This document shows positions 22,913 through 46,694 of a DNA stretch of 51,788 bases, piece by piece (the stretch's first letter is position 1; each line of letters starts with the position of its first letter). Location of the stretch: contig JAQGDQ010002423.1 in NCBI GenBank assembly GCA_030141605.1, positions 1 through 51,788 of the forward strand. The letters run 5' to 3'. The position numbers and the translations under genes are program-made. The notes beneath the pieces were generated by a model. The model made no database searches and had not been told where the DNA came from. It saw only the letters and a list, made by a program, of their open reading frames with translations. The stretch comes from Tubiluchus corallicola (taxonomy: Eukaryota; Animalia; Priapulida).

Positions 22913-23286
22913 TGGTACTATATTATTATTTTATTAATACTGTGTATTTTTAGGATGCAAATATATTGTTTTTGTTTTAATATGTGAAATTGTTGAGAAT
23001 ATATTTTATAATTACAGTTGTTATTTCTTTAAGACAAGTATTTTTTCTAAAAACTTTCAACATAAGATGAAAAATAATTTTCAAGACCTATGAGAGACAA
23101 AACAAAAAGGGGTAAATTACAAATTGTATGAAAAAAGCAGGAAAGTCTTTATAAATAATAGGATACAGAAGCGAAAGGAAGGAAAAAAAATAAAAACAAA
23201 TGGGGTGGAAATTTAATTTTAATATATATGATAAGCTAAAATGCTATGGAAAGTTTAATTTTAATAGTGATTAAAACTATTCAAGG

Positions 23287-23865
23287 CTATTTAACAAGTT
23301 TTTCTATTAATTTTTGTTGATGTTGTATAGTATCCTTTTGAGACACGACCATATCTTCCAATTTCCCAATATAGCTATTCTTTTCTGATAACTGTTCTGA
23401 TTGATTTCCAATTTTATTTTGCAATTTTTTTATACGCTCCATAAAATCAGCATTATCATTGGTAGGCTTGTCTGAAGCAACAGAAACAGTATTATAATCA
23501 CCTATGCCACCATAGTTGATACCATCTACTACTATTTTATTAGTTGTATAGTTGTTAGTAATATATTTAATGATTTCTTGTTTCAATTTATCTGCCGATT
23601 TAGGAGTCAGAGGTTTGTCAAAGGTATCTATTTTACGCAAATCTACCAAGTATTTTTCTTCTTTACTTTTCAACATTTCTCCTTTACCTGTTAATAACCA
23701 TTCGGGATTTATGTCATAAAAAAGAAGAATCTTCTCTGCTATATCTGTCCTTATATTACTTTTTTTATCAATAAGCCCTTTCGAAAGACCAGTTTCTTTA
23801 TAAAATCTATATCTTGTAATCCCCTGATTTTCAAGATATTTTAAAATTCTTTTAGATGCCTTCAC
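23287..23865 (-). CDS. Phage CI-like HTH repressor
   Basis: N-terminal HTH (ILKYLENQGITRYRFYKETGLS...INPEWLLTGKGEML) and a C-terminal coiled coil; no S24 peptidase motif is seen. Confidence 0.8.
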   Translation of the reverse strand: MKASKRILKYLENQGITRYRFYKETGLSKGLIDKKSNIRTDIAEKILLFYDINPEWLLTGKGEMLKSKEEKYLVDLRKIDTFDKPLTPKSADKLKQEIIKYITNNYTTNKIVVDGINYGGIGDYNTVSVASDKPTNDNADFMERIKKLQNKIGNQSEQLSEKNSYIGKLEDMVVSQKDTIQHQQKLIEKLVK

Positions 23866-23870
23866 AAAAC

Positions 23871-23946
23871 AGGAGAAAAAAATATGTTAAATTATTTGTA
23901 TAGGAGAAAAAATACATCTATATTTGTTCTCATAATAACAAATATA
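23871..23946. promoter_or_regulatory. Opposed Bacteroidota sigma-A promoters with repeated putative operator
   Basis: Rightward TTTG (23895-98), 20-bp spacer, TATATTTG (23919-26). Leftward TATATTTG read as CAAATATA at 23939-46. AGGAGAAAAAA(A)TA occurs twice (about 23871 and 23902). Confidence 0.6.
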
Positions 23947-23958
23947 CAAATAAAAAAA

Positions 23959-24122
23959 ATGAAAATGAATTTAAAGTATCTGGTAAAAAAATCCATTAAG
24001 CGAAAAACATAGCCAAAGCCCTAGGCTGTTCATCTGTTTATGTAAACCAGATAAAAAGCGAAAAATCAAAAGGAGTGAGGCAAACAAGGCTATACCAGAA
24101 TATAATAGATGTGCAGCCATAG
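23959..24122 (+). pseudogene. Cro/Ner-like HTH remnant
   Basis: The fragment KNIAKALGCSSVYVNQIKS is not linked to an intact start (stop or frameshift near 23997-24012) and is divergent from the repressor. Confidence 0.5.
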
Positions 24123-24158
24123 ATAAAGTACTTGTAAAGCACAGCAAAAAGAACAAAA

Positions 24159-24386
24159 ATGCATAACCACAGCGGCATTACTATATATAAAGCTAAGATA
24201 CACCTAACTATAAGCAAGTTAGTAGAAATGGGAATAAGTAAAAATTACATCAAAAAAGCACTTTCGAAAGCCAAAGGTTACCCTAATAGTTACCCTGAAA
24301 GGTTACCCTCTTGGCATCGCATTAAAGAACTATATGGCAACCGTAAAACCGTATGGGTGTGTTATGAGACTATAACAGATATATGA
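24159..24386 (+). pseudogene. Probable N-terminal stub of the Mu-like transposase
   Basis: Its position right after Cro and the sequence SW..IK...NRKTVWVCYETI resemble the N-termini of Bacteroidota Mu-like transposases as I recall them. No DDE core follows. Confidence 0.4.
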
Positions 24387-24487
24387 CCTGCAAACCTACC
24401 TACTTGCAGCAAATGAAGATCTAGAAGAGAGAGGGCTAATGAACAAAACAATTTTATTAATAAAAACATTTTAAAAAAAGTAAAACT

Positions 24488-26050
24488 ATGGCAAAAAAAA
24501 GTTTAGAAAGACAAGTTTACATAACTGGAGAAGGAGGACGCAAATGGTTCTCGGACGACTGGATAAATATGCAAAACACACTACTTGAAATAAGCAACAA
24601 GCTGCTTGAAGGAGTAGGCAACTGTGTAGTAGCCGGCATAGAAGCAACAGGCACAGGACCCTACAACCTAAGCGAAGGCATAGCCTATATAGATGGTGAA
24701 TTCTGCTACTTCGAAGCCCTTACCAACACCACACTACCCATTTACCTAAGTAAAAGCGAAGTAGAGGTAAAAAAACGTGAATATGCTGGTGGAACGGCAC
24801 TAGCCATCTCACGTAGGTATGTAGCCAAGGTAAACACATCGTCCACAGGAGCTAATGAACTAGAAATAAACGCAAACAACTACCCCAGCCTACGACTAGC
24901 CAAGATAAATCCCAATGGAGAGCTTGTAGGCTTACCCAAGAGCGACAGCCCCACACTAAACAGTAGCAACACCTTAGCCACCAGTAAGGCGGTATACGAC
25001 AAGCTAAGTGACTTACCCAACGCCAAGAGCGACAGCCCCACACTTAACGACAGCAACACCTTAGCCACCAGTAAGGCGGTGAGGGATGCCACAAGGGGTA
25101 GTTCTTCCACACAGGTGAAAATAGGAGATAATGCAGAAGCCAGTGGCACCTATTCCACCGCACTGGGATATAGAGCAGAAGCCAGTGGCTACCGATCCAC
25201 CGCACTGGGATACTATGCAAATGCCACTGGCAACAATTCCACCGCACTGGGATACTATGCAAATGCCACTGGCAACAATTCCACCGCACTGGGATACTAT
25301 GCAAATGCCACTGGCAACAATTCCACCGCACTGGGATACCATGCAAAAGCCAGTGGCGAAGATTCCACCGCAGTGGGACGAAGTGCAAAAGCCCTTGGCA
25401 CCTCTTCCACCGCACTGGGATACTGGGCAACAGCCAGTGGCAGCTATTCCACCGCACTGGGATACAATGCAAATGTATCAACAGATAGCACTATGGTGCT
25501 TGGGGACTCTAATACCACTGTAAAACTAGGCAATGGTAATGTGGTAACTTCCGACGAGCGAGATAAGATAGACATAGCCGATAATGAGCTGGGACTGGAC
25601 TTTGTAAAGCAGATAAAAACCCGCAAATGGAGAGGCAACAATAGAGACCAATATTGGATAAGAGAAAAAGTAAAAGAAAAAAGAGAAGGAGCAGCAGAGG
25701 AAGAAGAAAGAGAAGTATTCAAAACAGACGAGAAAGGCGAGCGTGTGTACGATGCTAAGGAACACGCCAAGGGGAGCAAGGCAGGCAAGCGCTGGCACAG
25801 GGGGGTAGTATCCCAAGAGATGCTCAAGCTCATAGACCCTATGGTGTTTTCGGGTGTGAAGGACACAGAGGTGAACAACCCCGACATCAACCACCAAGAA
25901 ATGGGCTTTGCCTACGACCAACTCATCGCCCCTATGATAAAAGCCATACAAGAACTATCAACAAGAATGGAAGAAAAGCAAACCCAAGTACAACAACAGA
26001 AAACACAAATAGAGCAACTTCTTAACCGAATAGAACAATTGGAGAAGTAA
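24488..26050 (+). CDS. Tail fibre 1: baseplate-anchoring N-terminus, YadA-like (Hep_Hag) repeats, C-terminal S74-type intramolecular chaperone
   Basis: N-terminal GG.K...DD...MQN...C.V.G...EG..YIDGE, two SNTLATSKAV linkers, 8-9 A.G..STALGY repeats and SDERDK followed by a coiled coil. Confidence 0.85.
   Translation: MAKKSLERQVYITGEGGRKWFSDDWINMQNTLLEISNKLLEGVGNCVVAGIEATGTGPYNLSEGIAYIDGEFCYFEALTNTTLPIYLSKSEVEVKKREYAGGTALAISRRYVAKVNTSSTGANELEINANNYPSLRLAKINPNGELVGLPKSDSPTLNSSNTLATSKAVYDKLSDLPNAKSDSPTLNDSNTLATSKAVRDATRGSSSTQVKIGDNAEASGTYSTALGYRAEASGYRSTALGYYANATGNNSTALGYYANATGNNSTALGYYANATGNNSTALGYHAKASGEDSTAVGRSAKALGTSSTALGYWATASGSYSTALGYNANVSTDSTMVLGDSNTTVKLGNGNVVTSDERDKIDIADNELGLDFVKQIKTRKWRGNNRDQYWIREKVKEKREGAAEEEEREVFKTDEKGERVYDAKEHAKGSKAGKRWHRGVVSQEMLKLIDPMVFSGVKDTEVNNPDINHQEMGFAYDQLIAPMIKAIQELSTRMEEKQTQVQQQKTQIEQLLNRIEQLEK
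25130..25471 (+). repeat. 42-bp coding tandem repeat (YadA-like head), three copies identical
   Basis: TCCACCGCACTGGGATACTATGCAAATGCCACTGGCAACAAT and variants. Confidence 0.9.
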
Positions 26051-26058
26051 TTTAACAG

Positions 26059-26254
26059 TTAGTAATTCTGTGCAGCAGAAAAAGATGCCCTTCTTTGAAA
26101 TTTAGCAAGTTTTCAAACGAAATGTAGCGAAAAGGAATGGGCTTCTGTTTGAAGTGAGCGAATCAATGAGCGAACAAGCTCAGCCCATTTCAGTGCAACG
26201 AAGAGTAAGAAAACCCTTTAAAAGCAGTTATACTCTGCTGCGCAAAATTACTAA
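26059..26254. repeat. Long-hairpin element, type R copy 1, with about 21-bp imperfect terminal inverted repeats
   Basis: TTAGTAATTCTGTGCAGCAGA...TCTGCTGCGCAAAATTACTAA. The core 26136-26213 recurs at about 35468-35548. Confidence 0.75.
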
Positions 26255-26266
26255 GCTTTCTTTTTT

Positions 26267-26767
26267 TTAAGTATTTTTATTATTACTTATCTCAATCTTA
26301 GGTCTTACTATTGTTTGTGGGTATTCCTTTTTGTGTGGATCTTTGTAAGCTGTTTCGTACACCATATTGTACACCTTAATGTTTTCGGTGGTCATAGGCT
26401 CAAACTTACTACTCACACGTTGTAAGGATGAAAAATGCTCTCCGCCCCAGTCTTGCAGTTGGCTATGCACCTTGTCTATAATGTCCAGTTTGTTAAGTGC
26501 TTCTTCTCTTACGGCCTGTGGTGCTAAGTTGTGCCAGTCGTTGCCAGCTTGTAGGCCTATGCGTATCTGCACTTGCACAATGCCTTGTTGCACTTGTTCG
26601 CTCAGTCCTTGCCACTGCGTATCGTTAAAGTCTATTAGTGCAGCAGGCATTACTACGGTATGGTTTTCACTTAGGTTTTCAAACTGTCCTTCCTCCAAGG
26701 TTATATAATTGAGTTCTGGTACATTTTGCATCAATCTGTCTGAAACTTCTTTAAATAATTCTTTCAC
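26267..26767 (-). CDS. Tail terminator-like protein (Mu gp37-like)
   Basis: VPELNYI...GQ.E......V.MPAALIDF...W and LD..DKVH..LQ.W.G..FS.L.R pattern; position in the minus-strand morphogenesis operon. Confidence 0.7.
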   Translation of the reverse strand: MKELFKEVSDRLMQNVPELNYITLEEGQFENLSENHTVVMPAALIDFNDTQWQGLSEQVQQGIVQVQIRIGLQAGNDWHNLAPQAVREEALNKLDIIDKVHSQLQDWGGEHFSSLQRVSSKFEPMTTENIKVYNMVYETAYKDPHKKEYPQTIVRPKIEISNNKNT

Positions 26768-26901
26768 TGTTTTTTTACATTTTAGTATTATATTATAATT
26801 ATTGTACTGCCTCTAATTTGGCAATATCTTAGCTATACCTTAGGGGGCTAGCCAAAAACTCTTTTTTAAGCATTTCGTAAATTCTTCCTCCTCTACCAAT
26901 T

Positions 26902-27348
26902 TCATTGTATCTGGCTCGATTTATTTAGTATAAAAGCATCTAATAGATTTGTTACCTCTGCTATTTTTGCAGGCTCTACTTCGTGCAACCACCCAGTAAA
27001 TTCCGTAGCCACATTAATAATATCAGCCAGAGAAATATCAACTTCTAAATGCTGTATTGCAGCCGATAGCTTAGACATTATGCTTGCCTCCTTACTATTG
27101 GCATAGCGTTTTCCTGCTCCACGTTTGGCAATGGTGTTGTTCAACTCGCGAAGCTGAGCATAAAAATTACGCAGCATTTCGGGCTTAGAGATACTCATAG
27201 CACTACGTTCCAAATCCCACTGGTTTTTTTTCACCCACTTGTTTATAGTTTGTTCTGTTATTCCCATCCTATTTGCCAGCTCCTTCTCCGTGCATCGGGT
27301 GTGGGTATATATATAGTAGGCTAATTGTTTCTTTTCTTTTACATTCAT
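26902..27348 (-). CDS. Terminase small subunit-like HTH protein (DUF1804-like)
   Basis: Probable start ATG 27348. The sequence KKQLAYYIY...KELANRMGITEQTINKWV...W and KEA.I.SKL.AAI..LE is typical of this family. Confidence 0.75.
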   Translation of the reverse strand: MNVKEKKQLAYYIYTHTRCTEKELANRMGITEQTINKWVKKNQWDLERSAMSISKPEMLRNFYAQLRELNNTIAKRGAGKRYANSKEASIMSKLSAAIQHLEVDISLADIINVATEFTGWLHEVEPAKIAEVTNLLDAFILNKSSQIQ

Positions 27349-27508
27349 AGTATTCTCAAATTTATTTGTATTGCAAATATGATGTGTTTTCTCTTTTTTT
27401 TTGCAAAACACTCCGAGCTTGACAACAAACACTCCAAAGCTTGCAATGTTTCTTGCTTCTAATGGTTTTAACTATGATTTTTGTAACGCAATTTCTTAGA
27501 AAAGAACT

Positions 27509-28363
27509 ATGAAGAAGAACTACTCCTTTATACTTTCCGATGAAACGGTCAACTCTTATGGCTACCGTGTGCTTACCAGTGGTATCAATTTAAAGCATTT
27601 CAAACAAAACCCCATTATGCTCTACGACCACAATAGCCAGCTGATGCCCATAGGCCTATGGAAAAACATACGAGTAGAAAAAGCACAGCTAAAAGCCGAT
27701 GCCGTATTTGACGAAAAAGACAAATTGGCTCGAACTGTAAAAAGCAAAGTAGAACAAGGTATACTCGATGCTACCTCCATAGGTATTACAGTGCAAAAAA
27801 CCTCTAAGGAAAAAGAACATATGATAAAAGGGCAAAAAAGTGCCACCATTGTACAAAGTGTACTCAAAGAAGCCTTTATCGCAACTCTTCCTGCCAATAA
27901 AAACGCACTGAAACTACATTTCCACAATCCACAAATTACACTATCTGCAAACTGTAGTATACAACAACTGAACGATTTGTTAGAAGCTCATTTAGACAAA
28001 ACTGAATGGAACAGGTACACAGACAGCAGAAATACTAAGGTACAAAAGCCCAGTAAACTGCATATTAAACTTGGCGTAGAATCCGATAACGAGGTGCTGA
28101 ACCTTATAGAACAAAAAGACCAACAAATAGAGCAGCTCAGTAGCACTGTGGAAACCTATAAAGCCAAAGAAAAAGAACGGAAGGAGGCAAAAATGACAGC
28201 ACTGCTCAACCAAGCTATAAGCGAACGCAAAATTACAGAAGCTGAAAAAAACAACTGGAAAGCAATGTTTTTGCAAGACACTGAAACGGTAAAGCGAATG
28301 TATAAAGAAGAGTTTGGAACGAAAATGCCAGATAGGTTAATTGAGCGATTAAAGGAGAAATAG
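27509..28363 (+). CDS. Prohead protease/scaffold protein (HK97/Mu gpI-like)
   Basis: SDETVNSYGYRVLTSGI....F..NPIMLYDH...PIG.W, S.G and PAN.NA motifs, then a coiled-coil scaffold. Confidence 0.8.
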   Translation: MKKNYSFILSDETVNSYGYRVLTSGINLKHFKQNPIMLYDHNSQLMPIGLWKNIRVEKAQLKADAVFDEKDKLARTVKSKVEQGILDATSIGITVQKTSKEKEHMIKGQKSATIVQSVLKEAFIATLPANKNALKLHFHNPQITLSANCSIQQLNDLLEAHLDKTEWNRYTDSRNTKVQKPSKLHIKLGVESDNEVLNLIEQKDQQIEQLSSTVETYKAKEKERKEAKMTALLNQAISERKITEAEKNNWKAMFLQDTETVKRMYKEEFGTKMPDRLIERLKEK

Positions 28364-28631
28364 AACAACAATTAAAAAAAACGAAGGATTGTTTCCATCT
28401 ACAAAAATACAAGTTTCACAACCCTTGGCTTATTATAAAGGATAAATATAGTTATTTTTTTTAGTGTTTTTTTCTTTACACTTTTTTGCCTTGAACCAAC
28501 CGAGCGTTGTAAGTTTGCTACGTTCGGCGGGTTCTTTTTGACTAACAAAAAGAAAAAAGCTTTTGAAAAACAACAAACAAAATACCGCATAGCAGAAACA
28601 AACGCCCTTAAAGGCTAAAACTAAAAACTGC

Positions 28632-28799
28632 AAAATACTGCGTAGCAGAATACGATGCCGCCTAATAAAAATAGCGTTAAGCCCTTTGTAGCGAAGGAGA
28701 AAAAAGAGGATTTTCTGTTTGAGCCGCAGGCGAGTTTAAAATCTTCTCTCCGTAGCGAAGAAGGGTAGCGTAATTTTTATTCAGCGGGAGGTTTTTGCT
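28632..28799 (+). repeat. Long-hairpin element, type P copy 1
   Basis: 168 bp with 4 mismatches to 30803-30970 (manual alignment). Confidence 0.9.
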
Positions 28800-28921
28800 C
28801 ACAAACTTTGCTTTCAAAGGAGTTCGCGAGCTTGCTACACTCGGTTGCTTCTTTTTGACTGACAAAAAGAAGAAGAAAAAGAGCAAAAAACAATATTAAT
28901 AATTATTCAAAACAAAACATT

Positions 28922-30721
28922 ATGACAACCAATTCTTTCCAAGAAGGCAACGGAGTCTTCAACACAACTACACCTAACGCACCCAACAACGTGCATATAG
29001 GCGAAAACGACGTATTAAAACTAAAAGTAGGCGAAATATCCTACGACAACCAATACTTTAGCGTTTCCAACGAAGCCACCTCCCCCCAAGCCATATACTG
29101 CGACGACGTAAGCCTATGGATAGTAGATGACACTACCAACAAAGTATACCGTTACGACGCAGACAACATCTATACTGGCAACTCCTTTAGCGTATCTGCA
29201 GAAACCACCTCCCCCCAAGGAGGCTACTTCGACGGCAGCCATCACTGGATAATAAGCGGAGAGAACAAAGTCTACAAATACTCCTCAGGTCTTTACACTG
29301 GTACCTCCTTCGACCTAACCAACCAGACCACCTCTCCCCAAGGAGGCTACTTTGACGGCAGCCATCACTGGATAATAAGTGCCACCAACGTAGTATACAA
29401 ATACGACAGCTCAGGCAACTACACCAACACATCATTTGACACCTCCAATGAAACCAGCTCCGCCCAAGGCGGCTACTGGGACGGTGCAAACCATTGGATA
29501 ATAGGAGAAAACAGCCAATCAGTGCATCAATACGACACCTCAGGAACATACACAGGATTTAGCTTCACCACAGCCGGCGAGACCACCGATATACGCGACG
29601 GCTATTGGGATGGTAAAAATCATTGGGTATTAGACGACACACAAAAAGTAGTTTACAAATACAACGTCCCCTCAGAAGTAGAAATAGGCACAGACACCTT
29701 GATACACGGAGCAATGCAGTCGGAAAGCATAGTAGATGCCCTAGGCAGCAAAGGAAACCCCGGACAAGTTCTCACGGCAAAAGAGAAAGACACCTACCAA
29801 TGGACAGACGACCTAACAGACAACCTCAACAACATCAACGAACACAAGAACAAAACCGACAACCCACACCAAGTAACAAAAACCCAAGTAGGACTTGGTA
29901 ACTTACCCAATGCCAAAAGCGACAGCACTACACTAAACAGCAGCAACACATTGGCTACAAGTAAGGCAGTGAGGGATAAGTTAAGTAGTATACAACAAGG
30001 CAATGGCACATTCAACACTACTATACCTACCAACGCTAATGATGTACACATAGGACAAGGTGATGCAGTAGTGGTAAGAGACAATGGTAAGGTTGGCATA
30101 GGCACCACAACCCCACTGGAAAAGCTAACAGTAATTGATGGAAACATAAGAATACATGGGATAAACAATGGAATTGATTTGCAAACAGCATCAGGAATAA
30201 GGTCTTGGATAACTGTATGTAGTGGTGGCAGACTGCAAATTGGTGGTACAGGCAATAAACCCCCTGAAAAAGGAGCTATTACTATTAACGGTGGAAAAGT
30301 AGGCATAGGCACTGGCTCACCCAACCAAAAACTATCTGTAGACGGCAACGCCTCCAAATCAGGAGGAGGAAGCTGGGCTACATACTCCGACCAACGCCTT
30401 AAAAAGAACATACAACCCTTTACTGATGGGTTAGAGATTATTGAAAACATCAACCCCGTCAATTTCAAATACAACGGAAAAGCAGGCCACAAAGCCGATG
30501 GCAAAACCTACACAGGCATAGTAGCACAAGAGCTTTACGAACACGCCCCACATATGTTCGAAAAGGTAAAAACAAAACTCAACGACACCGACACCGAAGA
30601 CACCGAACTATATATCTATGATGGAGGAAACACACTACTATACACACTAGTAAATGCCACCAAACAACAACAAACACAGATAGAGCAACTTCTTAAAAGA
30701 ATAGAACAATTAGAGAAGTAG
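28922..30721 (+). CDS. Tail fibre/receptor-binding protein 2: beta-propeller-like repeats, collar, VGIGT repeats and S74 chaperone
   Basis: Five F...ETTSPQGGY.DG..HWII repeats, DNPHQVTKTQVGLGNLPN, SNTLATSKAV, KVGIGT..P and SDQRLKKNI. Confidence 0.85.
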   Translation: MTTNSFQEGNGVFNTTTPNAPNNVHIGENDVLKLKVGEISYDNQYFSVSNEATSPQAIYCDDVSLWIVDDTTNKVYRYDADNIYTGNSFSVSAETTSPQGGYFDGSHHWIISGENKVYKYSSGLYTGTSFDLTNQTTSPQGGYFDGSHHWIISATNVVYKYDSSGNYTNTSFDTSNETSSAQGGYWDGANHWIIGENSQSVHQYDTSGTYTGFSFTTAGETTDIRDGYWDGKNHWVLDDTQKVVYKYNVPSEVEIGTDTLIHGAMQSESIVDALGSKGNPGQVLTAKEKDTYQWTDDLTDNLNNINEHKNKTDNPHQVTKTQVGLGNLPNAKSDSTTLNSSNTLATSKAVRDKLSSIQQGNGTFNTTIPTNANDVHIGQGDAVVVRDNGKVGIGTTTPLEKLTVIDGNIRIHGINNGIDLQTASGIRSWITVCSGGRLQIGGTGNKPPEKGAITINGGKVGIGTGSPNQKLSVDGNASKSGGGSWATYSDQRLKKNIQPFTDGLEIIENINPVNFKYNGKAGHKADGKTYTGIVAQELYEHAPHMFEKVKTKLNDTDTEDTELYIYDGGNTLLYTLVNATKQQQTQIEQLLKRIEQLEK

Positions 30722-30802
30722 TAATGAATAACTAGTAATTAAAATTCTGCACAGCAGAATACAAACGCCCTTAAAGGCTTTTGATAGAAAAACAGCGAAA
30801 TT

Positions 30803-30970
30803 AAAATTCTGCGTAGCAGAACACGATGCCGCCTAATAAAAATAGCGTTAAGCCCTTTGTAGCGAAGGAGAAAAAAGAAGATTTTCTGTTTGAGCCGCAG
30901 GCGAGTTTAAAATCTTCTCTCCGTAGCGAAAAAGGGTAGCGTAATTTTTATTCAGCGGGAGGTTTTTGCT
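30803..30970 (+). repeat. Long-hairpin element, type P copy 2
   Basis: Direct repeat of 28632-28799. Confidence 0.9.
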
Positions 30971-31026
30971 TCTTTTTGACTGACAAAAAGAAGAAGAAAA
31001 AGAACATAAAAAAAGCATTTACAGGC

Positions 31027-31221: not shown

Positions 31222-31321
31222 TTTTTTGCTCGCTACACTCGGTTGGCTCTTTTTGACTGACAAAAAGAAGAAGAAAAAGAACATAAAATAACTATTAATA
31301 ACCATTAAAAACTAAAAAACT

Positions 31322-38703: not shown

Positions 38704-38876
38704 ACGAAGCGTCTGTAGACCCAACAGAAAATTGGATAAGCTATATGGACACACTATTAGCTTACCATTTGAAGATAGACGCTTCGCAGCTCAACGATGA
38801 GCAATGGGCAGAGAAAATACAGCAACTAAAACATATAAGAGAACAGGAGGCAAAAGCAAATGGCTACCATAAATAA
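38691..38876 (+). CDS. -1 frameshift extension of the tail assembly chaperone (GT-like)
   Basis: Slippery A AAA AAG at 38691-97 precedes the stop. The -1 frame is open: ALDEASVDPTENWISYMDTLLAYHLKIDASQLNDEQWAEKIQQLKHIREQEAK... Confidence 0.8.
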   Translation, partial: KKALDEASVDPTENWISYMDTLLAYHLKIDASQLNDEQWAEKIQQLKHIREQEAKANGYHK

Positions 38877-38888: not shown

Positions 38889-40616
38889 ATGATACAAAAT
38901 GTAGCAATCAAGAAACTGATGACTGCCGGTGATAAAATGTTGAAATTTGGTAAAAACATCAAACAAACAAATAGCTCACTCAGCAGTTTTAATGACCTTT
39001 TTTCTGATGTTACTGATGGAGCAGTCGAATGTATGGCAAAATTTGACATACAAGCTCAAGCCGAAGCTCAGGTAATGCAGGGACTAGTATCTACCAACGA
39101 GGCCGTAGGACGCTCCTTCGAAGAATTGAAACAACAATCAATAGAACTCCAAAATAATTCATTGTTTGGAGACGAAGATATTTTACAAAATATCACTGCA
39201 AAACTGCTCACCTTTACCAATATAGCAGGCGAACAATTCGACCGCACCCAACAAGCCGCCTTAGACCTCTCTGCGCGGCTAGGGGGCGACCTCAAGTCAT
39301 CGTCTATACAACTGGGTGAAGCACTCAACAACCCTGCTGCTAACCTATCAAAACTCTCAGAACTTGGAATAGAATTTTCTGAAGAGCAAAAAAATATGAT
39401 AAAATCGTTACAAGAAACCAACAAAATGGCAGAGGCTCAAAATATTGTATTAGATGAATTGGAAGAGAAATTCGGAGGTAGCGCAGAAGCAGCAGCCAAA
39501 GCTGGTACAGGTCCCTTTAAGCAATTGTTCAATATCGTACAAGATATACAAGAAGAAATAGGAGGATTTATATTTAAGATTTTAGCCCCACTTATAGACT
39601 GGTTCAAACACCTTTTAAACAACTTAGACCCCGTTAAAGATGCGTTCAAAAACCTATATGAAGCAGTGAAACCTGTTTTTACTTCTCTGGGTGGTTTATT
39701 CAAATCCATATTTGGAGTAAACAAAGAAACAGACAGGACTAAAGAAACAATATCTTCTTTTGCTAAAATTCTCAACATACTTGCAGGAGTTGTAAGACCT
39801 ATAGCTAACGTTTTGTCTGGTTTGATAGATTTTATAGCTATTTTGGCAGCTTTTGTAGTTAAGGTGTTGTCTGCAATAAAGCCTTTGTTAATTGCTTATG
39901 GCCTATGGACAGTAGTTCAGTGGGCGTTGAATGTGGCTTTAGCTGCTAACTCCATAGGGTTGATTATTATAGGTATTGTTGCATTGATAGGTGCTATTAT
40001 GTGGGTAATAAAATCTACAGAAGGATGGGGAGAGCAATGGGAAGTATTAGGCAATATGTTGAGTATTACTTGGGACATTATCAAACTTTCGTTTCAAGCA
40101 GCTTGGCAGTTTATCAAGAACTACTTTTTTGATACAATAGACAAAATGCGTATCGCTTGGATAGAATTTAAAGACTTTTTTGGTTTTTCAGACGAAGAAG
40201 ACCTCAAATCCTTGCGTAAGTTTCAGGACCAAATAGAAGCACGTGCAGACGCATTCTCCAATATAACCGACGAAATAAGAGCCAAAAGTGATGAGCTAGC
40301 AGCAGCCAGTAAAATTACGGTGAGATTCAAAGACGACAAGGAAGATGAAAAAGCCGACACGTCAACTGACACGTCTAAAGAATTAGTAAAAAAATACAAT
40401 AATGGAGCACCTCCTGTTGCTAACAATGCAGTCACTAGCATCAATCAAGGCGGACACAAACCAACCAGCATCACAGTATCCAATCTTACACTTATAGGAG
40501 GCGATAGCAATATCAATGTAGCCAATGCACAGGAAGGAGCAGAAGAGTTGGAAGATGTGATTTTGCAGTCTCTTACAAGAGGCTTACAAAGTTTAACCAA
40601 TTTTGCACAACAGTAA
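38889..40616 (+). CDS. Tail tape measure protein (short, 575 aa)
   Basis: Helical Ala/Leu-rich protein with LLTFTNI...A.DL.A.LG.D.K....QLG.ALN.P and QWALN.A..AN.IG motifs plus hydrophobic segments. Confidence 0.88.
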   Translation: MIQNVAIKKLMTAGDKMLKFGKNIKQTNSSLSSFNDLFSDVTDGAVECMAKFDIQAQAEAQVMQGLVSTNEAVGRSFEELKQQSIELQNNSLFGDEDILQNITAKLLTFTNIAGEQFDRTQQAALDLSARLGGDLKSSSIQLGEALNNPAANLSKLSELGIEFSEEQKNMIKSLQETNKMAEAQNIVLDELEEKFGGSAEAAAKAGTGPFKQLFNIVQDIQEEIGGFIFKILAPLIDWFKHLLNNLDPVKDAFKNLYEAVKPVFTSLGGLFKSIFGVNKETDRTKETISSFAKILNILAGVVRPIANVLSGLIDFIAILAAFVVKVLSAIKPLLIAYGLWTVVQWALNVALAANSIGLIIIGIVALIGAIMWVIKSTEGWGEQWEVLGNMLSITWDIIKLSFQAAWQFIKNYFFDTIDKMRIAWIEFKDFFGFSDEEDLKSLRKFQDQIEARADAFSNITDEIRAKSDELAAASKITVRFKDDKEDEKADTSTDTSKELVKKYNNGAPPVANNAVTSINQGGHKPTSITVSNLTLIGGDSNINVANAQEGAEELEDVILQSLTRGLQSLTNFAQQ

Positions 40617-40632: not shown

Positions 40633-41295
40633 ATGCCAGACGGAGAAAATAAAACATTTGAAACAAAACCTATCAACATCAAAAAACTGTTCGAAAAGGT
40701 TTATGGATATAGAGGTTTACCCTTTCCGTATCAGTCTAAACCTTTTGACGAATTAGGAGGAGGTCAAATAAATGATTACGCTCAGTTGGTGGGAGGAATT
40801 TTCAACCGCACCACCAAACTTGGCATCAAAGTATTTATGCCTTTTGCCATACAGTTTGACGATATAGATCCCGGTTTACCTTTTTACCAACTGCCTAATG
40901 AGCCTACCGTGCAAGTATCAACCAGCAAACGCATTGTAGAAACCGCATTGGTAGGCACCGACCCTAAGCAACCAAGCCGCGGAACGGTAAAGGAGCTTAT
41001 AGGCAACCAAGATTACGATATAACCATACAAGGTATTGCCATCAACGAACCCGAATATTACAAAATAAAAGGAATTAACGAATACCCTGGTGACACAATA
41101 GGTGTTCTTAACGATTTATACAACTTGAACAAAGCTCTTGAAATACACCACGCCTTGTTGCGTGATGTACTGGGAATACAACACATAGTTATTACAAGCA
41201 TATCATTCCCACGTATGGTGGGCGTACAAAATGCACAAGCCTACGAAATACAAGCACGTTCCGATAGCGAATTAGTACTAACAATAAAAAATTAA
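40633..41295 (+). CDS. Tail tube initiator-like protein (DUF6046-like)
   Basis: LPNEP.V.....K.IV.T......GTVKE.I...DY.I.I.G and Q.Y.I.A.SD motifs. Confidence 0.7.
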   Translation: MPDGENKTFETKPINIKKLFEKVYGYRGLPFPYQSKPFDELGGGQINDYAQLVGGIFNRTTKLGIKVFMPFAIQFDDIDPGLPFYQLPNEPTVQVSTSKRIVETALVGTDPKQPSRGTVKELIGNQDYDITIQGIAINEPEYYKIKGINEYPGDTIGVLNDLYNLNKALEIHHALLRDVLGIQHIVITSISFPRMVGVQNAQAYEIQARSDSELVLTIKN

Positions 41296-41301
41296 ATAAA
41301 A

Positions 41302-42387
41302 ATGCTTGCCCTCAAAGCAGATATACAAATAGGGAATGCTCAGTTCACACGCGTTAATAGTGTGGAAATAAAAAAGGTTACCAAGCAATTGGCCAATACC
41401 TGTACTATCAAACTACCTATTACTGAACATCTCAAACGCACCACCGAAGAAGGTAAAGAGGATATAACTACTTCAACAAATATAGCTCAAGCGTTCAAGC
41501 CGGGAGACCCCGTAAATGTACAGCTTGGCTATAACAATGACTTGCGAAATGAGTTCAAAGGCTTTGTAACTACCATAGACCCCCAAACACCCCTCAGCGT
41601 AGAATGCGAAGACTATACTTACTGGTTCAAACGAGCACAAGTACCAGCAAAAACCTATCGGAAAACAACACTTAAAGAAATCTTAAATGAAGTGCTAAAA
41701 GCTGTAAACGACAATGAGAATATAAAAGAATTAGAGATAAATATAGGTTTGGACGACAACATACCCGACATTACCCTCGAACCTTTTTACATAAAATCAG
41801 GAGAAACCGCAGCCTTTGTAATCAATAAATTTATTAAGGAATTCGGACTCTGTGCCTATTTTACACCCGACGACAAGCTCTTTGTAGGTCAAGCCTATGA
41901 GCAAGCAACAGGCAAGGTAATATACGCACTATCAGGCAGTCAACAAAATGTGATTAAAAACGAACTGAAATTTCGCACCTCAGAACAAACGCAAGTGCAA
42001 ATAGAAGCCGTAGGAATATCCAAAGACGATAAAAGAATAACAGTAACCCTACCAGAAGAACTAGAGGGAGTAGTAGGTAAACGACCCTTTTTCTATTACA
42101 ATATAGGCCCCTTAAATACTGAGGCTGAAAAAAAAGAAGCACAAAAACACCTCACCACCTATGCTCAAGAACAACTAAAAAAAATAAGATACGATGGCTA
42201 CGATGGAAGCATCACCACATTTCTAGAACCACCCGTAGAACCTAACTACGAAGCAGAGATAAGAGACTTAAAGTTCGAAGAACGTAAAGGCACTTATTTC
42301 GTAGATAGTGTAACAACTACCTTCGGAGAGCAAGGGGCAAGACGCAAAATAGAACTAGGGATTAAAATAAGCAAAAGCACCGTTTAA
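41302..42387 (+). CDS. Baseplate hub protein (P2 gpD/Mu gp44-like)
   Basis: V.SVEI....LA.TC.IKLP, F..GD.V.V.LGY, EF.GFV, ECED, YDGY.G..T.F and G.Y.V..V...F...GARR motifs. Confidence 0.8.
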   Translation: MLALKADIQIGNAQFTRVNSVEIKKVTKQLANTCTIKLPITEHLKRTTEEGKEDITTSTNIAQAFKPGDPVNVQLGYNNDLRNEFKGFVTTIDPQTPLSVECEDYTYWFKRAQVPAKTYRKTTLKEILNEVLKAVNDNENIKELEINIGLDDNIPDITLEPFYIKSGETAAFVINKFIKEFGLCAYFTPDDKLFVGQAYEQATGKVIYALSGSQQNVIKNELKFRTSEQTQVQIEAVGISKDDKRITVTLPEELEGVVGKRPFFYYNIGPLNTEAEKKEAQKHLTTYAQEQLKKIRYDGYDGSITTFLEPPVEPNYEAEIRDLKFEERKGTYFVDSVTTTFGEQGARRKIELGIKISKSTV

Positions 42388-42401
42388 ATATAATTTGAAA
42401 T

Positions 42402-43211
42402 ATGAGCAAGAAATTAGAACAACTTGGTGAAGCTATCAAACAAATAGTCGACGTACCAGTACAAATTATTACCGCCATTGTTACCGAAGTAGATGAAAAC
42501 AACTATACCTGTACTGTAACCGACCCGCAAGATAATGAACTTATAGATGTACAGCTAAGAGCCAACATAATAGATTTTGAAACAGACGAAGACAAGCGAG
42601 GTGCTGTAACCATACCTGCCATAGGTAGCAACGTACTTGTAGGCAAGGTAGGCAATAGTAATGAACGATTGTATATAGCACAATGTAGTGTAGTAGACAA
42701 GGTACTATATTTAGGAGATACTACCAAGCTCAATATCAACAACGAAACCATAGATGTAGAAGTAGGCGAATCAAAACTCAATATCAACAACGAAACCATA
42801 GATGTAGAAGTAGGCGAATCAAAACTCAATATCAACAACGAAACCATAGATGTAAAAGTAGGCGAGTCAACCCTAAATATAAAAGACGAAACCATAGATG
42901 TAAAAGTAGGCGAGTCAACCCTAAATATAAAAGACAAACTGTTTACCTTCAATGGCGGGAAAAATGGAGAGCTTATCAACATAGATGACCTTACGATTAA
43001 GCTCAACAATCTGGTTAGCGAAGTAAACGCTATAAAAGACGAATACGACAGTCATACCCACACTATACCTGCAAAGACCCCTATAACTACCTCAGCAGGG
43101 TCTGGAACTATTACCTCAAAGGTAACTACCTCTAAAACGAGTAAACCGGTGACTGATGATGCTAGTTCTTTTAGCAAAGAAAATTATAAGGACGGTAAAA
43201 TAACACATTAA
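42402..43211 (+). CDS. Baseplate spike protein (gpV/gp45-like) with an expanded beta-helix
   Basis: OB-fold-like P..GS.VLV, 16-aa repeats, FNGG.NG.L and a C-terminal HTH (HxH) tip motif. Confidence 0.75.
   Translation: MSKKLEQLGEAIKQIVDVPVQIITAIVTEVDENNYTCTVTDPQDNELIDVQLRANIIDFETDEDKRGAVTIPAIGSNVLVGKVGNSNERLYIAQCSVVDKVLYLGDTTKLNINNETIDVEVGESKLNINNETIDVEVGESKLNINNETIDVKVGESTLNIKDETIDVKVGESTLNIKDKLFTFNGGKNGELINIDDLTIKLNNLVSEVNAIKDEYDSHTHTIPAKTPITTSAGSGTITSKVTTSKTSKPVTDDASSFSKENYKDGKITH
42726..42935 (+). repeat. 48-bp coding tandem repeat, about 4.4 copies
   Basis: KLNINNETIDVEVGES twice, then KLNINNETIDVKVGES, TLNIKDETIDVKVGES and TLNIKD. Confidence 0.9.
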
Positions 43212-43223: not shown

Positions 43224-43529
43224 ATGAACCCACAAGATATAGCACTTATAACTGATGAAGAATCGCCCGACTATTTAGACTTACTAATAGAAAATGGCGA
43301 CTTCGTCATCAACAACGCCACTAACCAGCACCAACTGCTACTACTACTGGCACACAAAGGACATATAAAAGAATACCCAGTAGCAGGTGTAGGTATCAGA
43401 GATTATCTACTTAATGAAGGACTGGAAGGACTAGGAAAGAAATATTAAAAGTTCAAAGATGGTATGAGGATAGACATATTAGAACTGAAACAAGACGGAA
43501 AACTGGAAATTCAAGCACCGTATAAATAA
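43224..43529 (+). pseudogene. Baseplate sheath-initiator-like protein (gp25/gp46-like) with an in-frame stop
   Basis: DL.I.NGDF.I.....QH..LLL...KG..KEYP..GVGI..YL. TAA at 43446-48 is followed in frame by KFKDGMRIDILELKQDGKLEIQAPYK*. Confidence 0.65.
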
Positions 43530-43535: not shown

Positions 43536-43910
43536 ATGATAACAAAACTTGTAGTACACTGCACAGCTACTCCCAACGGACGGCATACTAGCGCGGAGGA
43601 AATAAACCATTGGCACAAGCAAAGGGGATGGCGCAAAATAGGCTACCATTATATTATCTACACCGATGGTATAATAGAAAAAGGAAGAGAGGAGGAAGAG
43701 CAGGGAGCTCATTGTAAAGGACATAACAAAAACTCCTTAGGCATAGCCCTGGTAGGCACTGATAGCTTCTCGCTCGCACAGCTTACCAACTTATTTAGGC
43801 TACTCACAGAACTCAAAAAGAAGCACAAACAAGCAACCATACACGGACACAATGAATTCAGCAATAAAACGTGTCCTGGTTTTAATCTTAAAAAGCTATT
43901 ATTACAATAA
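43536..43910 (+). CDS. N-acetylmuramoyl-L-alanine amidase (T7 lysozyme-like endolysin)
   Basis: Motifs VVHCTAT, IGYHY, GAHCKGHN..S.GI and HGHNEF..KTCPGF. Confidence 0.92.
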   Translation: MITKLVVHCTATPNGRHTSAEEINHWHKQRGWRKIGYHYIIYTDGIIEKGREEEEQGAHCKGHNKNSLGIALVGTDSFSLAQLTNLFRLLTELKKKHKQATIHGHNEFSNKTCPGFNLKKLLLQ

Positions 43911-44146
43911 TGAACAGCGAATTTCACCCCGTGGACTGGAGTAAACTTACAAACAAGGAAATGCTTATACTGCTCAACGACCGTGTAAATCGTTTAGAGG
44001 GTAAAATACATCGTCTCCCAGAAAGAGTAAAACTAGTAGAAGAAAAACAAAAGTCGCAAGGCAAATATATAGGAATCGTAGCAGGTATTATAGGTAGTAT
44101 TATTGCTAGCATAATTACCTTTAGCGACCTGTTTCGCTCTTCTTAG
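43910..44146 (+). CDS. Small membrane protein, holin-like candidate
   Basis: Coiled coil plus one C-terminal transmembrane helix; overlaps the endolysin stop. Confidence 0.55.
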   Translation: MNSEFHPVDWSKLTNKEMLILLNDRVNRLEGKIHRLPERVKLVEEKQKSQGKYIGIVAGIIGSIIASIITFSDLFRSS

Positions 44147-44228
44147 TGTGCTTTGCAGCAAAGAGATGATAATAACAAAGAAACGGTAAAAAACAGTTGG
44201 CTATCTATACCGTAAAATTAGTATAAAT

Positions 44229-44444
44229 ATGAAACTTTACAAACTTATTAATGTATATAGGTTAGTACCACGCTTAGCATCGGTACTATTTGGCTATACC
44301 TACTACCAATCTCTACAATGGTATCTCTTACTTGATACTCAAACAATAGAGCAAACTACTTTTATTACAGGCTTTACCGCCTGCATAGTAGGCTGGTTTA
44401 AATTCTATATGTCAGGCAACAAAACAAACGAAGATACACAATGA
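44229..44444 (+). CDS. Two-TM small protein, holin candidate
   Basis: Two hydrophobic segments; located in the lysis cluster. Confidence 0.55.
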   Translation: MKLYKLINVYRLVPRLASVLFGYTYYQSLQWYLLLDTQTIEQTTFITGFTACIVGWFKFYMSGNKTNEDTQ

Positions 44445-44608
44445 AAACATTATTACTAAAACTACTCATAGGCTTTGTGCTTGGTTTTGCAGCAGGCAAC
44501 CTGTTTTATGCAGCATTTTTGCAAAAGCCGCAAACGCAAGTCAGAAAACTAAAACAAAAAGGGAGAAACAATACACAACCTATAATTATTGAAACCCAAG
44601 AGAAATAA
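44441..44608 (+). CDS. Small N-terminally anchored membrane protein (55 aa)
   Basis: MKTLLLKLLIGFVLGFAAGNLFYAAFLQKPQ...; translationally coupled on both sides (ATGA and TAATG). Confidence 0.55.
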   Translation: MKTLLLKLLIGFVLGFAAGNLFYAAFLQKPQTQVRKLKQKGRNNTQPIIIETQEK

Positions 44609-44829
44609 TGGAAATACAAGCAAAACAAAACCATAGTCAAGCAGACATAGCTATTAAATACTATGGCAACATAGAACAAGGTATAGTGCAGCTAGCAAAA
44701 GACAATCACCTTGTTGTAGGAGAAGAATTACAAAAAGGCACTACACTTTCTTTACAAGAATCTGTAGACTTCGCCAACGAACGCGTGGTTGAAGCCCTAC
44801 GGAACGAAGAAGTAGCCTCAAACAATTAA
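44608..44829 (+). CDS. LysM-like tail protein X
   Basis: QS..DIAI.YYG..E.....LA..N pattern; lies before the baseplate J-like gene. Confidence 0.7.
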   Translation: MEIQAKQNHSQADIAIKYYGNIEQGIVQLAKDNHLVVGEELQKGTTLSLQESVDFANERVVEALRNEEVASNN

Positions 44830-44842
44830 AAAAATAATAAAT

Positions 44843-45646
44843 ATGGCACGTACAAGAGAAGAAATTCAAGAACAGATAGAAACAGAAATAAAAAAAAATC
44901 TACCCCAACTAAACAGCAACAGCCAAACGGCTATTTGGCGACTTTGGGTCTATATATACAGTGTAGTGATAGCTAGCTTTGAACTTATTCTAGACCAATT
45001 TAAAACTGAAATAGAAGCTCGCACAGAAGAACGTAGAGTAGGCACATTGCAATGGTACGTGCAGCTGGCAAAAAACTTTCAACTTGGCGATTCGCTGGTA
45101 ATTAACGAAGCAGGCAACTTGACTTACAAAACCATAGACCCCAATAAGCAAATAATAAGTGTGGCAGCAGCAATACAAGGACCTAATAAGCTAAAAATAT
45201 TAGTAGCCAAAGACAACGAAAGCAAAGAACTGGAAAAGCTGAGCAGCCAAGAACTTAGCTTATTTATTGCCTATATAGAAGAAGCTAAATTTGCAGGTAC
45301 AGACATACTCTCCGATAGCAAAAATGCAGACCTTATCTCCTTTGAAGTTGATATATACTACAACTTAGAAATATCCAAAGACAAAATACAGGAACGTATA
45401 GATGAGGCTTTAGACGGATTCAAAAAAAGCATAGCTTTTAATGGACAATGGGTACGTAACGACTTCTTATCTGCCATCAAAAACGTGGAAGGGGTAGAGG
45501 ATGTTAGCATTACACTAATACAAGTAAAGCCCGAAGGAGAACCTCTGCAAGACATTACCAACCAACGTACCTACGAAACAATGGCAGGCTATTTCAACTA
45601 CGAAAACAAAACATACAACTATCCAGAATTTAACCCCACATCTTAA
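44843..45646 (+). CDS. Baseplate wedge protein (J-like)
   Basis: MART..EI, S.TAIWRLW.Y, GTL.WY...A..FQ.GD, K.AG and Y...AGYF motifs. Confidence 0.8.
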   Translation: MARTREEIQEQIETEIKKNLPQLNSNSQTAIWRLWVYIYSVVIASFELILDQFKTEIEARTEERRVGTLQWYVQLAKNFQLGDSLVINEAGNLTYKTIDPNKQIISVAAAIQGPNKLKILVAKDNESKELEKLSSQELSLFIAYIEEAKFAGTDILSDSKNADLISFEVDIYYNLEISKDKIQERIDEALDGFKKSIAFNGQWVRNDFLSAIKNVEGVEDVSITLIQVKPEGEPLQDITNQRTYETMAGYFNYENKTYNYPEFNPTS

Positions 45647-45650
45647 AAAT

Positions 45651-46220
45651 ATGGCGTTTCTCAACATAAATATCAATAGCTACTTGAACAGTCTACTATA
45701 CCCCGCTGTTAAAAAGGCAAAGCAGGTATTGTGGCTACAATCACTATTTAGCCCAGTAAAACAACAAGCCGAAGAGTACCAATTATTTAGAGACACAGCT
45801 TGGTTCAATATAGGTGTTAATGCACAAACTTTGGTTTTTGAAAACTACCTCAACCGACTATATACTGAAAACTACGATGAGATAAATGACTTTAATAAAC
45901 CCATCACCGAACCCGGAACAAAGCGTATATTTATCAAAAACTTTGAAGGAATAGACTCTGATTTCATCTCTGATGAAGAGGAAGACTTAGATTTTGTGCT
46001 TACTAGTGCCGAAGGAGAAGATCCTGAAATATCTATCAATGTAACAGCCGAGGGAGAACTTGACCTCGCCCAATTAGGAGACTTTTCGGTACTTGTTTTA
46101 GACAATATAAGAAGTACACAACAGAAAATAGACGAATTGATGCCACAAATACAAGCCACAGTAGAAAAAGTGAAAGTAGCTAACAGACAAGGTGTACTAT
46201 TATTAGTAGCAGCATCGTAA
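45651..46220 (+). CDS. Baseplate wedge protein (gpI-like)
   Basis: WL..L..P and N.Q....E..LN..Y motifs; directly after the J-like gene. Confidence 0.65.
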   Translation: MAFLNININSYLNSLLYPAVKKAKQVLWLQSLFSPVKQQAEEYQLFRDTAWFNIGVNAQTLVFENYLNRLYTENYDEINDFNKPITEPGTKRIFIKNFEGIDSDFISDEEEDLDFVLTSAEGEDPEISINVTAEGELDLAQLGDFSVLVLDNIRSTQQKIDELMPQIQATVEKVKVANRQGVLLLVAAS

Positions 46221-46227
46221 AAAAAGA

Positions 46228-46341
46228 CCCCCAGCTTCAATCCTCTGACAAAGGTTAAAAATAAGCACGTTAAATGCGCTTTACTGGGGGCTTATAGCCT
46301 CTCTGAGCAGTCAACGTGCTTTTTACTTTTCTTTGTCAGAG
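46228..46341 (+). ncRNA. Putative structured RNA or cis-regulatory element with crossing helices
   Basis: Three perfect complementary pairs: 46228-34/46284-90, 46243-53/46331-41 and 46263-71/46313-21. Confidence 0.5.
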
Positions 46342-46694
46342 AACGCAAATATAAGCTAATTTAAACAAAACAAAAAAAATGTGTGAAAAAATTAAAACCA
46401 GATAACAAAAATCTAGCTATGAAAAGTGAAGAAATAAGGCTTTAAATACCATTAAAACAATATTTAAAGCCTTGTTTGATAATATACCCTGATTTGTTCC
46501 ATATTTTTACCCCTCATTTGTTTTGACGATAATATATCAAGATAAAAGAACAAATTTAAAGTGAATTAAAAGTTAAGAGTTAATTAAAAATAAACTAAGT
46601 TTAAAAACATTTTGTAGGAAATAATAAAATATTTATTTTTGCTATTCAAAGCTTATGTGAAGTGCATAGATACATTCCTCTTAAAAAAAACAAA

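Follow-up and report, generated by a model that had tools for sequence, protein, structure and literature searches.

Tailocins have been described mainly from Pseudomonadota and Bacillota. The contractile systems of Bacteroidota include Afp/PVC-type eCIS, which carry an Afp15-like AAA+ ATPase and effector cargo, and type iii T6SS; T6SS have a membrane complex, a two-part sheath and ClpV. The R-type syringacin of Pseudomonas syringae is, by its published account, a headless, contractile particle whose parent phage had a Mu-like tail, with tail and lysis genes kept (PMC4542187). The Winoviridae are described as having Mu-like structural genes and a MuA transposase, and their tabulated core set includes neck, capsid, portal/head morphogenesis, sheath and protein D (PMC8776804, Table 2). 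Hankyphage (Bacteroides phage p00), a transposable Bacteroidota prophage, is reported to form defective virions with packaged DNA (PMC12135933), unlike the headless locus described here.

The window analyzed here is a stretch of 51,788 nucleotides from a contig assembled for Tubiluchus corallicola. Its phage-derived locus has the order of the Winogradskyella phage Peternella_1 (NC_062754) and the Flavobacterium phage FPSV-S1: repressor (minus strand), small gene, transposase position, tail completion (minus) and TerS (minus), followed by protease, capsid, DUF2586 sheath, tube, tape measure, two hubs and baseplate. The window sheath is 24-28% identical to those of these two Winoviridae phages. 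One difference from Winoviridae is the deletion of the early block, neck, MuF, portal, adaptor and TerL. The locus is a collapsed Mu-like prophage related to the Winoviridae, and it is classed as derived from a relative of that family rather than as a member, with sheath and hub of the functional-phage core set present, neck and portal absent and the capsid gene dead.

The locus resembles the R-type syringacin in having a headless contractile tail with tail and lysis genes retained. It differs in phage family and phylum, and syringacin is mitomycin-inducible with proven particles and killing, whereas the window locus is known from its genes and its repressor lacks an S24 domain. The sheath and collar folds of pyocin R2 and diffocin match those of the window at just 11-15% identity, with separate ancestry. 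Afp/PVC-type eCIS and type iii T6SS share the sheath fold; in contrast, the window has a phage tape measure, a frameshifted chaperone and a lysis cassette, and no AAA+ ATPase, effector or membrane-complex gene was recognized among the locus proteins scanned. The initial annotation, which had called the locus neither eCIS nor T6SS and derived it from a Mu-like prophage, is supported on both points. We consider it likely (probability about 0.6) that the locus is a young, host-owned element resembling an R-type tailocin that would kill kin by puncture. Its origin likely lies in a phage family with no earlier report of yielding a tailocin.

Tail and lysis genes

Table 1. Predicted features of the locus, in window positions.
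Feature	Position	Strand	Basis or remark
Repressor, N-terminal HTH, no S24 peptidase domain	23287..23865	-	Same position as Peternella gp01
Cro-like remnant, two apparent frameshifts	23961..24162	+	Position only
75-aa frame at transposase position	24159..24386	+	Position only
Baseplate-anchored tail fibre (anchor domain, YadA-head repeats, S74-like chaperone)	24488..26050	+	Anchor profile E 1e-15
Five intergenic blocks of a palindrome-rich repeat family, bounding fibre and GT87 genes	26051..35660	.	
Tail terminator, Mu gp37/lambda gpU/pyocin collar fold	26267..26767	-	Predicted fold
Deletion junction (MuG, MuF, portal, adaptor, TerL lost)	26768..26901	.	Gene order of relatives, assembly only
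TerS-like HTH protein, open	26902..27348	-	
Head protease/scaffold, open, short scaffold part	27509..28363	+	Identical in run X1 from 27600
Fibre-like protein, S74 chaperone, no baseplate anchor	28922..30721	+	
LVIVD-repeat protein	31322..32548	+	
Collar-domain fibre protein, no baseplate anchor	33100..34023	+	
GT87 glycosyltransferase cargo, split by 8-base duplication	34005..35308	-	Split also in run X1
Major capsid protein remnant	35673..35997	+	Profiles; contigs of runs X1 and X2
Small conserved gene, precedes sheath in intact relatives	36049..36492	+	Profile E 1e-11
Contractile sheath (DUF2586)	36600..37874	+	Fold and profile
Tail tube	37886..38302	+	
Tail chaperone, A6G run ahead of stop, open -1 frame	38398..38876	+	Sequence
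Tape measure protein, 575 aa (family median 614)	38889..40616	+	Identical in run X1
DUF6046 tube initiator, hub, spike	40633..43211	+	
gp25-like baseplate gene, stop in window	43224..43529	+	Open in run X1
Amidase endolysin and three small holin candidates	43536..44608	+	
LysM-like protein, wedge J-like and wedge I-like genes	44608..46220	+	
Strong hairpin ending tail operon ahead of host elbB	46243..46341	.	z -5.0, 0/200 shuffles

The assembly was checked against runs X1 and X2, which represent one sample, possibly the source of the assembly, and so are not independent of it; no RNA run was among the matching runs listed. A run X1 contig was identical over 35718-37817, and one of run X2, covering 35479-36092, differed by one gap but no substitution. 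A shift in secDF was noted within 22600-27600 of the assembly.

The sheath matched no PDB entry by sequence; by fold, its model was closest to the pyocin R2 sheath (E 1.8e-11), and that of the terminator (pLDDT 91) to the Mu terminator (E 3.6e-6). These predicted folds, the check proposed for the gene identities, support both assignments. The locus holds a complete baseplate along with contractile sheath, tube and tape measure, a collar/terminator for the tail cap, and a lysis cassette of an amidase and candidate holins, the latter picked by size and hydropathy. Tail and lysis candidates are open, as had been claimed. The gp25-like gene (43224-43529), missing from the genes listed in that claim, carries a stop in the window; six additional letters at three places in run X1 reopen its frame, and an error of the assembly is the most likely cause of the stop. 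Homologs of the -1 product of the chaperone gene were found in 48 of 84 loci. Counting against domestication, the hub departs from 8 of 45 conserved columns and wedge I from 4 of 10, and 6 of 68 and 5 of 51 members, respectively, are equally bad. No convincing inverted repeats were found at the prophage ends, and Rfam gave 0 matches in 22900-46700.

Head genes and the pattern of loss

Profiles of related prophages searched against six frames of the window detected no remnant of TerL, portal, MuF, MuG or the DUF1320 adaptor, and the neck gene is likewise missing at the locus. A single deletion of about 5 kb explains this loss, since in intact relatives TerL, portal, MuF, MuG and the adaptor sit between terminator and TerS; the terminator, itself inside the head operon, outlives the deletion of its neighbors. 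The capsid remnant of about 108 codons has lost its start, has a stop at codon 7 and lacks its 3' two thirds, in a region covered by the contigs of runs X1 and X2. The description of the locus as headless with a capsid pseudogene therefore stands, and no virion could be formed from it. The intact head and packaging genes of a gene transfer agent are absent from the locus as well; a capsid stub and the TerS and protease frames are what remains. The protease/scaffold protein (284 aa) is shorter than about 65 of 66 family members (228-491, median 350) and has Phe at a Ser column that is 98% conserved in 43 homologs. This open frame had gone unmentioned in the initial annotation.

Head genes located elsewhere in the genome, or supplied by another prophage, would make the locus part of a split or helper-dependent particle. 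The head-gene search in the host covered the window, which leaves room for such an arrangement; nevertheless we regard it as highly improbable, given that the element's own capsid and protease remnants are in place, that the tail genes stand at single depth in run X1, and that no cognate terminase was found with the TerL profile in 26 of 27 genomes with headless loci. The profile matched in the remaining genome (G247, beside a second sheath hit) and in three of three controls.

The tail genes were all spared by four or more separate losses, which hit the early block, the head operon, the 3' part of the capsid gene and the right end. Of the read-supported point lesions, two fall within 2,014 bp of non-tail remnants, and the 15,815 bp of tail, fibre and lysis frames are free of them (P = 0.013, a test on two events, both in one gene). 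Counting the two Cro frameshifts, which were not read-checked and may be errors, gives P = 0.00016. The Cro and transposase stubs reported earlier proved to be positional guesses; the 75-aa frame had no similarity to transposases by phage tblastn, a 10-sequence profile, a longer-protein search, pairwise comparison or PHROGs. The reported absence of MuB was confirmed, with no MuB-like or other ATPase among the locus proteins, and the replication genes count among those lost.

Headless loci in other Bacteroidota and the age of this copy

Loci that are headless with the terminator kept comprised 21 of 22 Chitinophaga loci, in two families, and occurred with variations in Roseivirga and others (28 Chitinophaga sheath matches yielded the 22 loci, six weaker or split matches being left out). 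Further Chitinophaga loci were headless in 19 of 20 cases. Among loci with at least 5 kb upstream, no head gene was present in 10 of 70 from genomes and 7 of 51 from metagenomes. On the sheath tree the headless state has to change nine times, with at least five of the changes forced by strong branches. The predicted terminator-kept, head-deleted design thus recurs independently, and the selective retention of the terminator that had been proposed is borne out in separate lineages.

Per-gene median dN/dS was 0.065-0.20 in Chitinophaga A (15 loci), 0.05-0.23 in Chitinophaga B (6 loci) and 0.01-0.17 in Roseivirga (3 loci; phage-derived genes with usable pairs), for comparisons at dS up to 1.5. 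By these ratios, the predicted headless tail design is shown to be held by purifying selection in other Bacteroidota; fixation together with purifying selection was found in Chitinophaga A and Roseivirga. Tail distances in family A tracked host parE distances (14 genomes, Spearman 0.55, 0/2000 permutations), and co-divergence in family B was weak (6 genomes, 85/2000 permutations). One of the two Chitinophaga families retains a full-length Mu transposase and ATPase, and the family B transposase is 26% identical to that of Hankyphage. The capsid profile missed one of three controls and partly matched the genome of locus L013, which makes L013 uncertain as a headless case. The headless state is not always domestication: L033, an IS-flanked near-copy of the intact L034 in the same genome, is a clear decaying example.

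No host relative carries the locus or is close enough to test it, the best SecDF match being 63% (protein database) and the best ParE match 74% (201 Bacteroidales genomes). A SecDF scan of genome contigs found no relative, and no orthologous locus was found; the closest sheath is 54% identical. Third-codon use in tail vs. same-strand host genes was 0.23 vs. 0.12 for C, 0.11 vs. 0.18 for G and 0.25 vs. 0.37 for T. The capsid stub, at 41-48% identity to relatives, is as near to them as several tail genes. Codon use that has not ameliorated and a stub so well preserved suggest a recent origin, and the open TerS and protease frames imply little time for decay. The copy in the window looks young and mid-way through domestication. 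The proposal that selection kept the tail is supported for the terminator and for the other lineages, whereas for the Tubiluchus corallicola contig copy itself domestication is no more than likely.

The same youth would fit an ordinary, recently grounded prophage in which a few large deletions missed the tail block and time was too short for point lesions. Besides unameliorated codon use, open TerS and protease frames and the lack of an orthologous locus, the broken GT87 cargo and the decaying L033 are consistent with it, as is the absence from the window of a gene of about 100 aa beside the terminator (phrog_17154), which Chitinophaga A and B, Roseivirga and locus L221 retain and which, at a guess, is a late activator. 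Incomplete prophages are also reported to lose terminase and portal preferentially and to gain tail fibres (PMC7744054). A grounded prophage nonetheless seems rather unlikely: the losses spared even the terminator and a displaced anchored fibre, the end state is that of lineages long under purifying selection, and lysis genes were kept, although the same account has them preferentially lost (PMC7744054).

We put slightly better than even odds on a wider reading, that Winoviridae-like Mu phages have repeatedly become headless tail weapons in Bacteroidota, with two old families in Chitinophaga, one maybe a mobile tailocin, and the window locus as a further, early, independent origin whose repeat-bounded fibre cassettes may vary target range. 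If so, Bacteroidota would have a third contractile weapon alongside T6SS and eCIS, and the recurring class would be a repeated natural test of the genes a tail needs once headless, testable now in culturable Chitinophaga strains. No description of a DUF2586-sheath or Chitinophaga tailocin was found in the literature searched, mostly below full-text level. PhageTAILor, by its preprint trained on 416 Bacteroidota genomes (10.64898/2026.08.24.746745), could already include some of these loci in its predictions.

Regulation, fibres and proposed mode of action

The repressor gene is open, as had been claimed, and encodes an N-terminal HTH but lacks the S24 domain found in six of eight other repressors scanned, which makes mitomycin induction doubtful here. 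Sigma-70 promoter and terminator scans gave matches at chance level. A Bacteroidota promoter pattern gave a weak signal (15 matches vs. 5.4 expected, one ahead of Cro).

By analogy to R-type tailocins, release of the repressor would turn the operons on. The 575-aa tape measure would guide the assembly of baseplate, tube and sheath, presumably into a tail of about 85 nm by rule of thumb, with the terminator as its cap, a part played by the collar in pyocin R2. Lysis of the producer would fall to amidase and holin. Binding to a surface glycan would be the task of the anchored fibre, on which extra fibre proteins may be docked, and contraction would push spike and tube through the target envelope. 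Membrane puncture is favored over toxin delivery because no effector gene was recognized.

The earlier count of four receptor-binding genes was overstated, as only the fibre at 24488 has the anchoring N-terminus and the LVIVD gene has no fibre motif. The anchored fibre is relocated, lying about 20 kb from wedge I rather than in its usual place behind it. The LVIVD gene had no match in 50,697 phage records, and atlas hits of its protein reached at most 0.80. Fibre genes had 2-5 times the run X1 depth of tail genes, a depth that is not copy number and to which other organisms may contribute, and in one run X1 contig a fibre linker is joined to the LVIVD gene, which means that shuffled fibre copies exist in the sample. 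These copies, and the weak resemblance of one fibre to the fibre adhesin bd2133 of Bdellovibrio (E 3e-4), would suit a domesticated tail used for attachment or host/prey contact instead of kin killing, its extra fibres belonging to a wider adhesin family of the organism. Such a role appears quite improbable, with endolysin and holin candidates within the tail operon, no fibre signal peptide evident on inspection, and neither an effector nor an Afp15-like ATPase or membrane complex recognized among the locus proteins scanned. Integron attC sites were considered for the intergenic repeat blocks and dismissed on inspection. One of the five folds better than its shuffles, and the depth of the blocks in run X1 was much higher.

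Organization of the phage-derived block

The gene order of the 23-kb block between the host genes secDF and elbB is that of Peternella_1, a Winogradskyella phage of the Winoviridae, minus large parts (Table). The tail operon is unbroken and closes with a strong hairpin, and the tail and lysis set is complete and open in a locus that lacks a head. The labels gp25, Mor and MAT follow common usage, as does the length rule for tape measures.

Profiles for TerL, portal/MuF, DUF1320 and MuG, built from 84 related loci, had no match within the locus; those for the terminator, TerS, protease and capsid did match, the last over the first third of its gene. The order in many intact relatives is terminator, MuG, MuF, portal, adaptor, TerL and TerS, whereas the terminator adjoins TerS here, which argues for a single deletion of about 5 kb that came close to the terminator without reaching it. 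The capsid stub runs for about 108 codons; its start is missing and codon 7 is a stop. The initial annotation was right that the locus is headless and largely right as a whole, but it required corrections; for example, it did not mention the head protease frame, which is open but short and has Phe at a Ser column conserved in 98% of 43 homologs.

The sheath and terminator identities were borne out by predicted folds. The terminator model (pLDDT 91) best matched the Mu terminator, followed in order by lambda gpU, T5 p142 and the diffocin and pyocin R2 collars, and the DUF2586 model (pLDDT 86) best matched the pyocin R2 and diffocin sheaths. Four genes had been called receptor-binding, of which only the fibre gene in the left part carries (E 1e-15) the N-terminal domain that 46 relatives have in the gene 3' of wedge I; the fibre gene has been relocated by about 20 kb. 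Its linker motif is common to two of the others, and the LVIVD repeat gene had nothing in common with it. The 75-aa frame could not be confirmed as a transposase stub. The S24 domain is absent from the window repressor and present in six of eight other repressors scanned, the two without it including one from an intact prophage.

Table. Features of the window and gene content of related headless loci
Feature	Position	Strand	Content or remark
Mutator-family (IS256-like) transposase	426-1358		310 aa; matches profile positions 92-377 only
Region of alanyl-tRNA synthetase frame	3001-5000		1051 aa; end very AT-rich (GC 17-21%), no Pfam match there
secDF frameshift	22780-22800		near 5' end, in G run; probably assembly error
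secDF (host)	end ~22912	minus
Block, left part			repressor, Cro-like remnant, 75-aa frame, fibre
Fibre gene	24488-26050
Block, next two genes		minus	tail terminator, TerS-like gene
Block, middle part			head protease, three fibre-like/repeat proteins, split GT87 (glycosyltransferase) gene, capsid stub
Palindrome-rich repeats	26051-35660		flank each fibre/cargo gene; absent from rest of window
Diverged GT87 copy	34542-34626		second X1 contig
Tail operon, first half			sheath, tube, chaperone, tape measure, DUF6046, hub, spike
Tail operon, second half			gp25-like, amidase, small membrane proteins, LysM-like, two wedges
Span of X1 contigs	35720-46640
Diverged elbB copy	46642-46788		second X1 contig
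elbB (host)	46662
Chitinophaga family A (L117-L129, L012, L024)			small gene, terminator (minus strand), lysis genes in 10/15, tail; amidase absent in five
Chitinophaga family B (L131-L136)			family A content plus repressor, 653-aa full-length Mu transposase, AAA protein
Roseivirga loci (L053, L054, L056; L142-L144)			S24 repressor, Gam-like gene, retained DUF1320 adaptor, Laminin-G fibre >1,200 aa
Ca. Azobacteroides	L040:5434-16350		headless: repressor, Gam-like gene, terminator, lysis genes, tail
Roseivirgaceae genome	L064:8782-11197		headless; two tandem sheath genes

Assembly check of the breaks

The breaks were checked in three runs of one sample containing window DNA, possibly the assembly's own source. 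Over 35720-46640, contigs of run X1 show a single substitution relative to the window plus six additional letters, all six within the gp25-like gene, where they restore the open frame; the sole apparent tail lesion is therefore most likely an assembly error. The secDF and Cro frameshifts look like errors of the same kind. The capsid truncation, GT87 duplication and protease change were all found in X1, and a contig of run X2 that has zero substituted letters shows the same stop codon and loss of the start in the capsid gene. The palindrome-rich repeats have far higher depth in X1, and a single X1 contig links the LVIVD gene with a fibre linker, hinting at shuffled fibre/cargo cassettes elsewhere in the sample. 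The diverged elbB and GT87 contigs suggest a sister lineage or paralogs within the sample.

Interpretation of the window copy

We consider the locus to be probably an R-type-tailocin-like killing element (probability about 0.6). By analogy with R-type tailocins, some signal would induce assembly of a capped contractile tail, lysis would free the particle from its producer, and the fibre would guide binding to a target killed by puncture. The locus would work in the manner of the syringacin and pyocin R2 and is a candidate for that kind, its particles and their killing being predicted. Two point lesions both lie in the non-tail remnants (2,014 bp) rather than in the frames for tail, fibre and lysis proteins (15,815 bp; P = 0.013), which is modest evidence because a single gene holds both.

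That the locus is an ordinary decaying prophage is the less likely reading, and several features count against domestication of this copy: third codon positions of the tail genes differ from those of same-strand host genes, the capsid stub has hardly drifted, the TerS and protease frames are still open, and hub and wedge I depart from conserved columns more often than most family members do. The related locus L033 became headless through plain decay, so the headless state alone can also arise without domestication. A small gene adjoining the terminator in Chitinophaga families A and B, Roseivirga and locus L221 was not found in the window; from its position it may be a late activator (PHROGs category, unknown). 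Compared with the killing element, a role in attachment without killing is improbable, and a split or helper-dependent particle very improbable. In genomes with headless loci, many of them incomplete, the TerL profile matched 1 of 27 (controls, 3/3) and the capsid profile 2 of 27 (controls, 2/3).

Best identities to other organisms (sheath, 54%; SecDF, 63%; ParE, 74% among 201 Bacteroidales genomes) reveal no close relative and point to a distant Bacteroidales lineage as host.

Recurrence of headless loci in Bacteroidota

The significance of the window locus lies mainly in the recurring headless class to which it led. Where 5 kb or more of sequence precedes the sheath, head genes were absent from 10 of 70 loci among the 80 best genome loci and from 7 of 51 among 80 metagenome loci. 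On a sheath tree built by a quick method, the headless state required nine changes, and strong branches force at least five of them; the window fell outside all other headless groups. Headless loci of families A and B, L013, L040, L221 and the window retain the terminator, which was undetected within the Roseivirga loci, L007, L033 and L064.

In a search of the genus, 24 of 103 Chitinophaga genomes had the sheath; the 22 loci examined comprised 15 of family A, six of family B and one intact prophage. Fourteen family A loci end in a protein of 750-800 aa, partly cut at the locus edge, and the single one scanned matched GH16. Family B may represent either a mobile tailocin or a regulatory block that was co-opted. 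In Roseivirga, headless loci occur in three of 36 genomes, all at the same host site; a fourth genome matches the sheath more weakly. Median dN/dS per gene, for pairs with dS of 0.05-1.5, was 0.065-0.20 in family A, 0.05-0.23 in family B and 0.01-0.17 in Roseivirga, and the family A locus, conserved in 15 genomes, is under purifying selection. Family A distances track host parE; several sister genomes have gaps. The case for a host-level function is much stronger for the Chitinophaga families than for the window, although killing is putative there too.

Literature on tailocins in Bacteroidota, Chitinophaga and Flavobacterium, Bacteroidetes phage tail-like bacteriocins, rhapidosomes with prophage, and DUF2586 yielded no description of a Bacteroidota DUF2586-sheath headless tail class; most subscription journals and the supplements of 10.64898/2026.08.24.746745 lay outside this search. 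Neither "Bacteroid" nor "Flavobact" occurs in the accessible part of PMC12090994. Two Microscilla mini-loci without tape measure or baseplate (L029, L030) are near-identical and consist of sheath, tube, chaperone and DUF6046 genes, followed by a DNA methylase.
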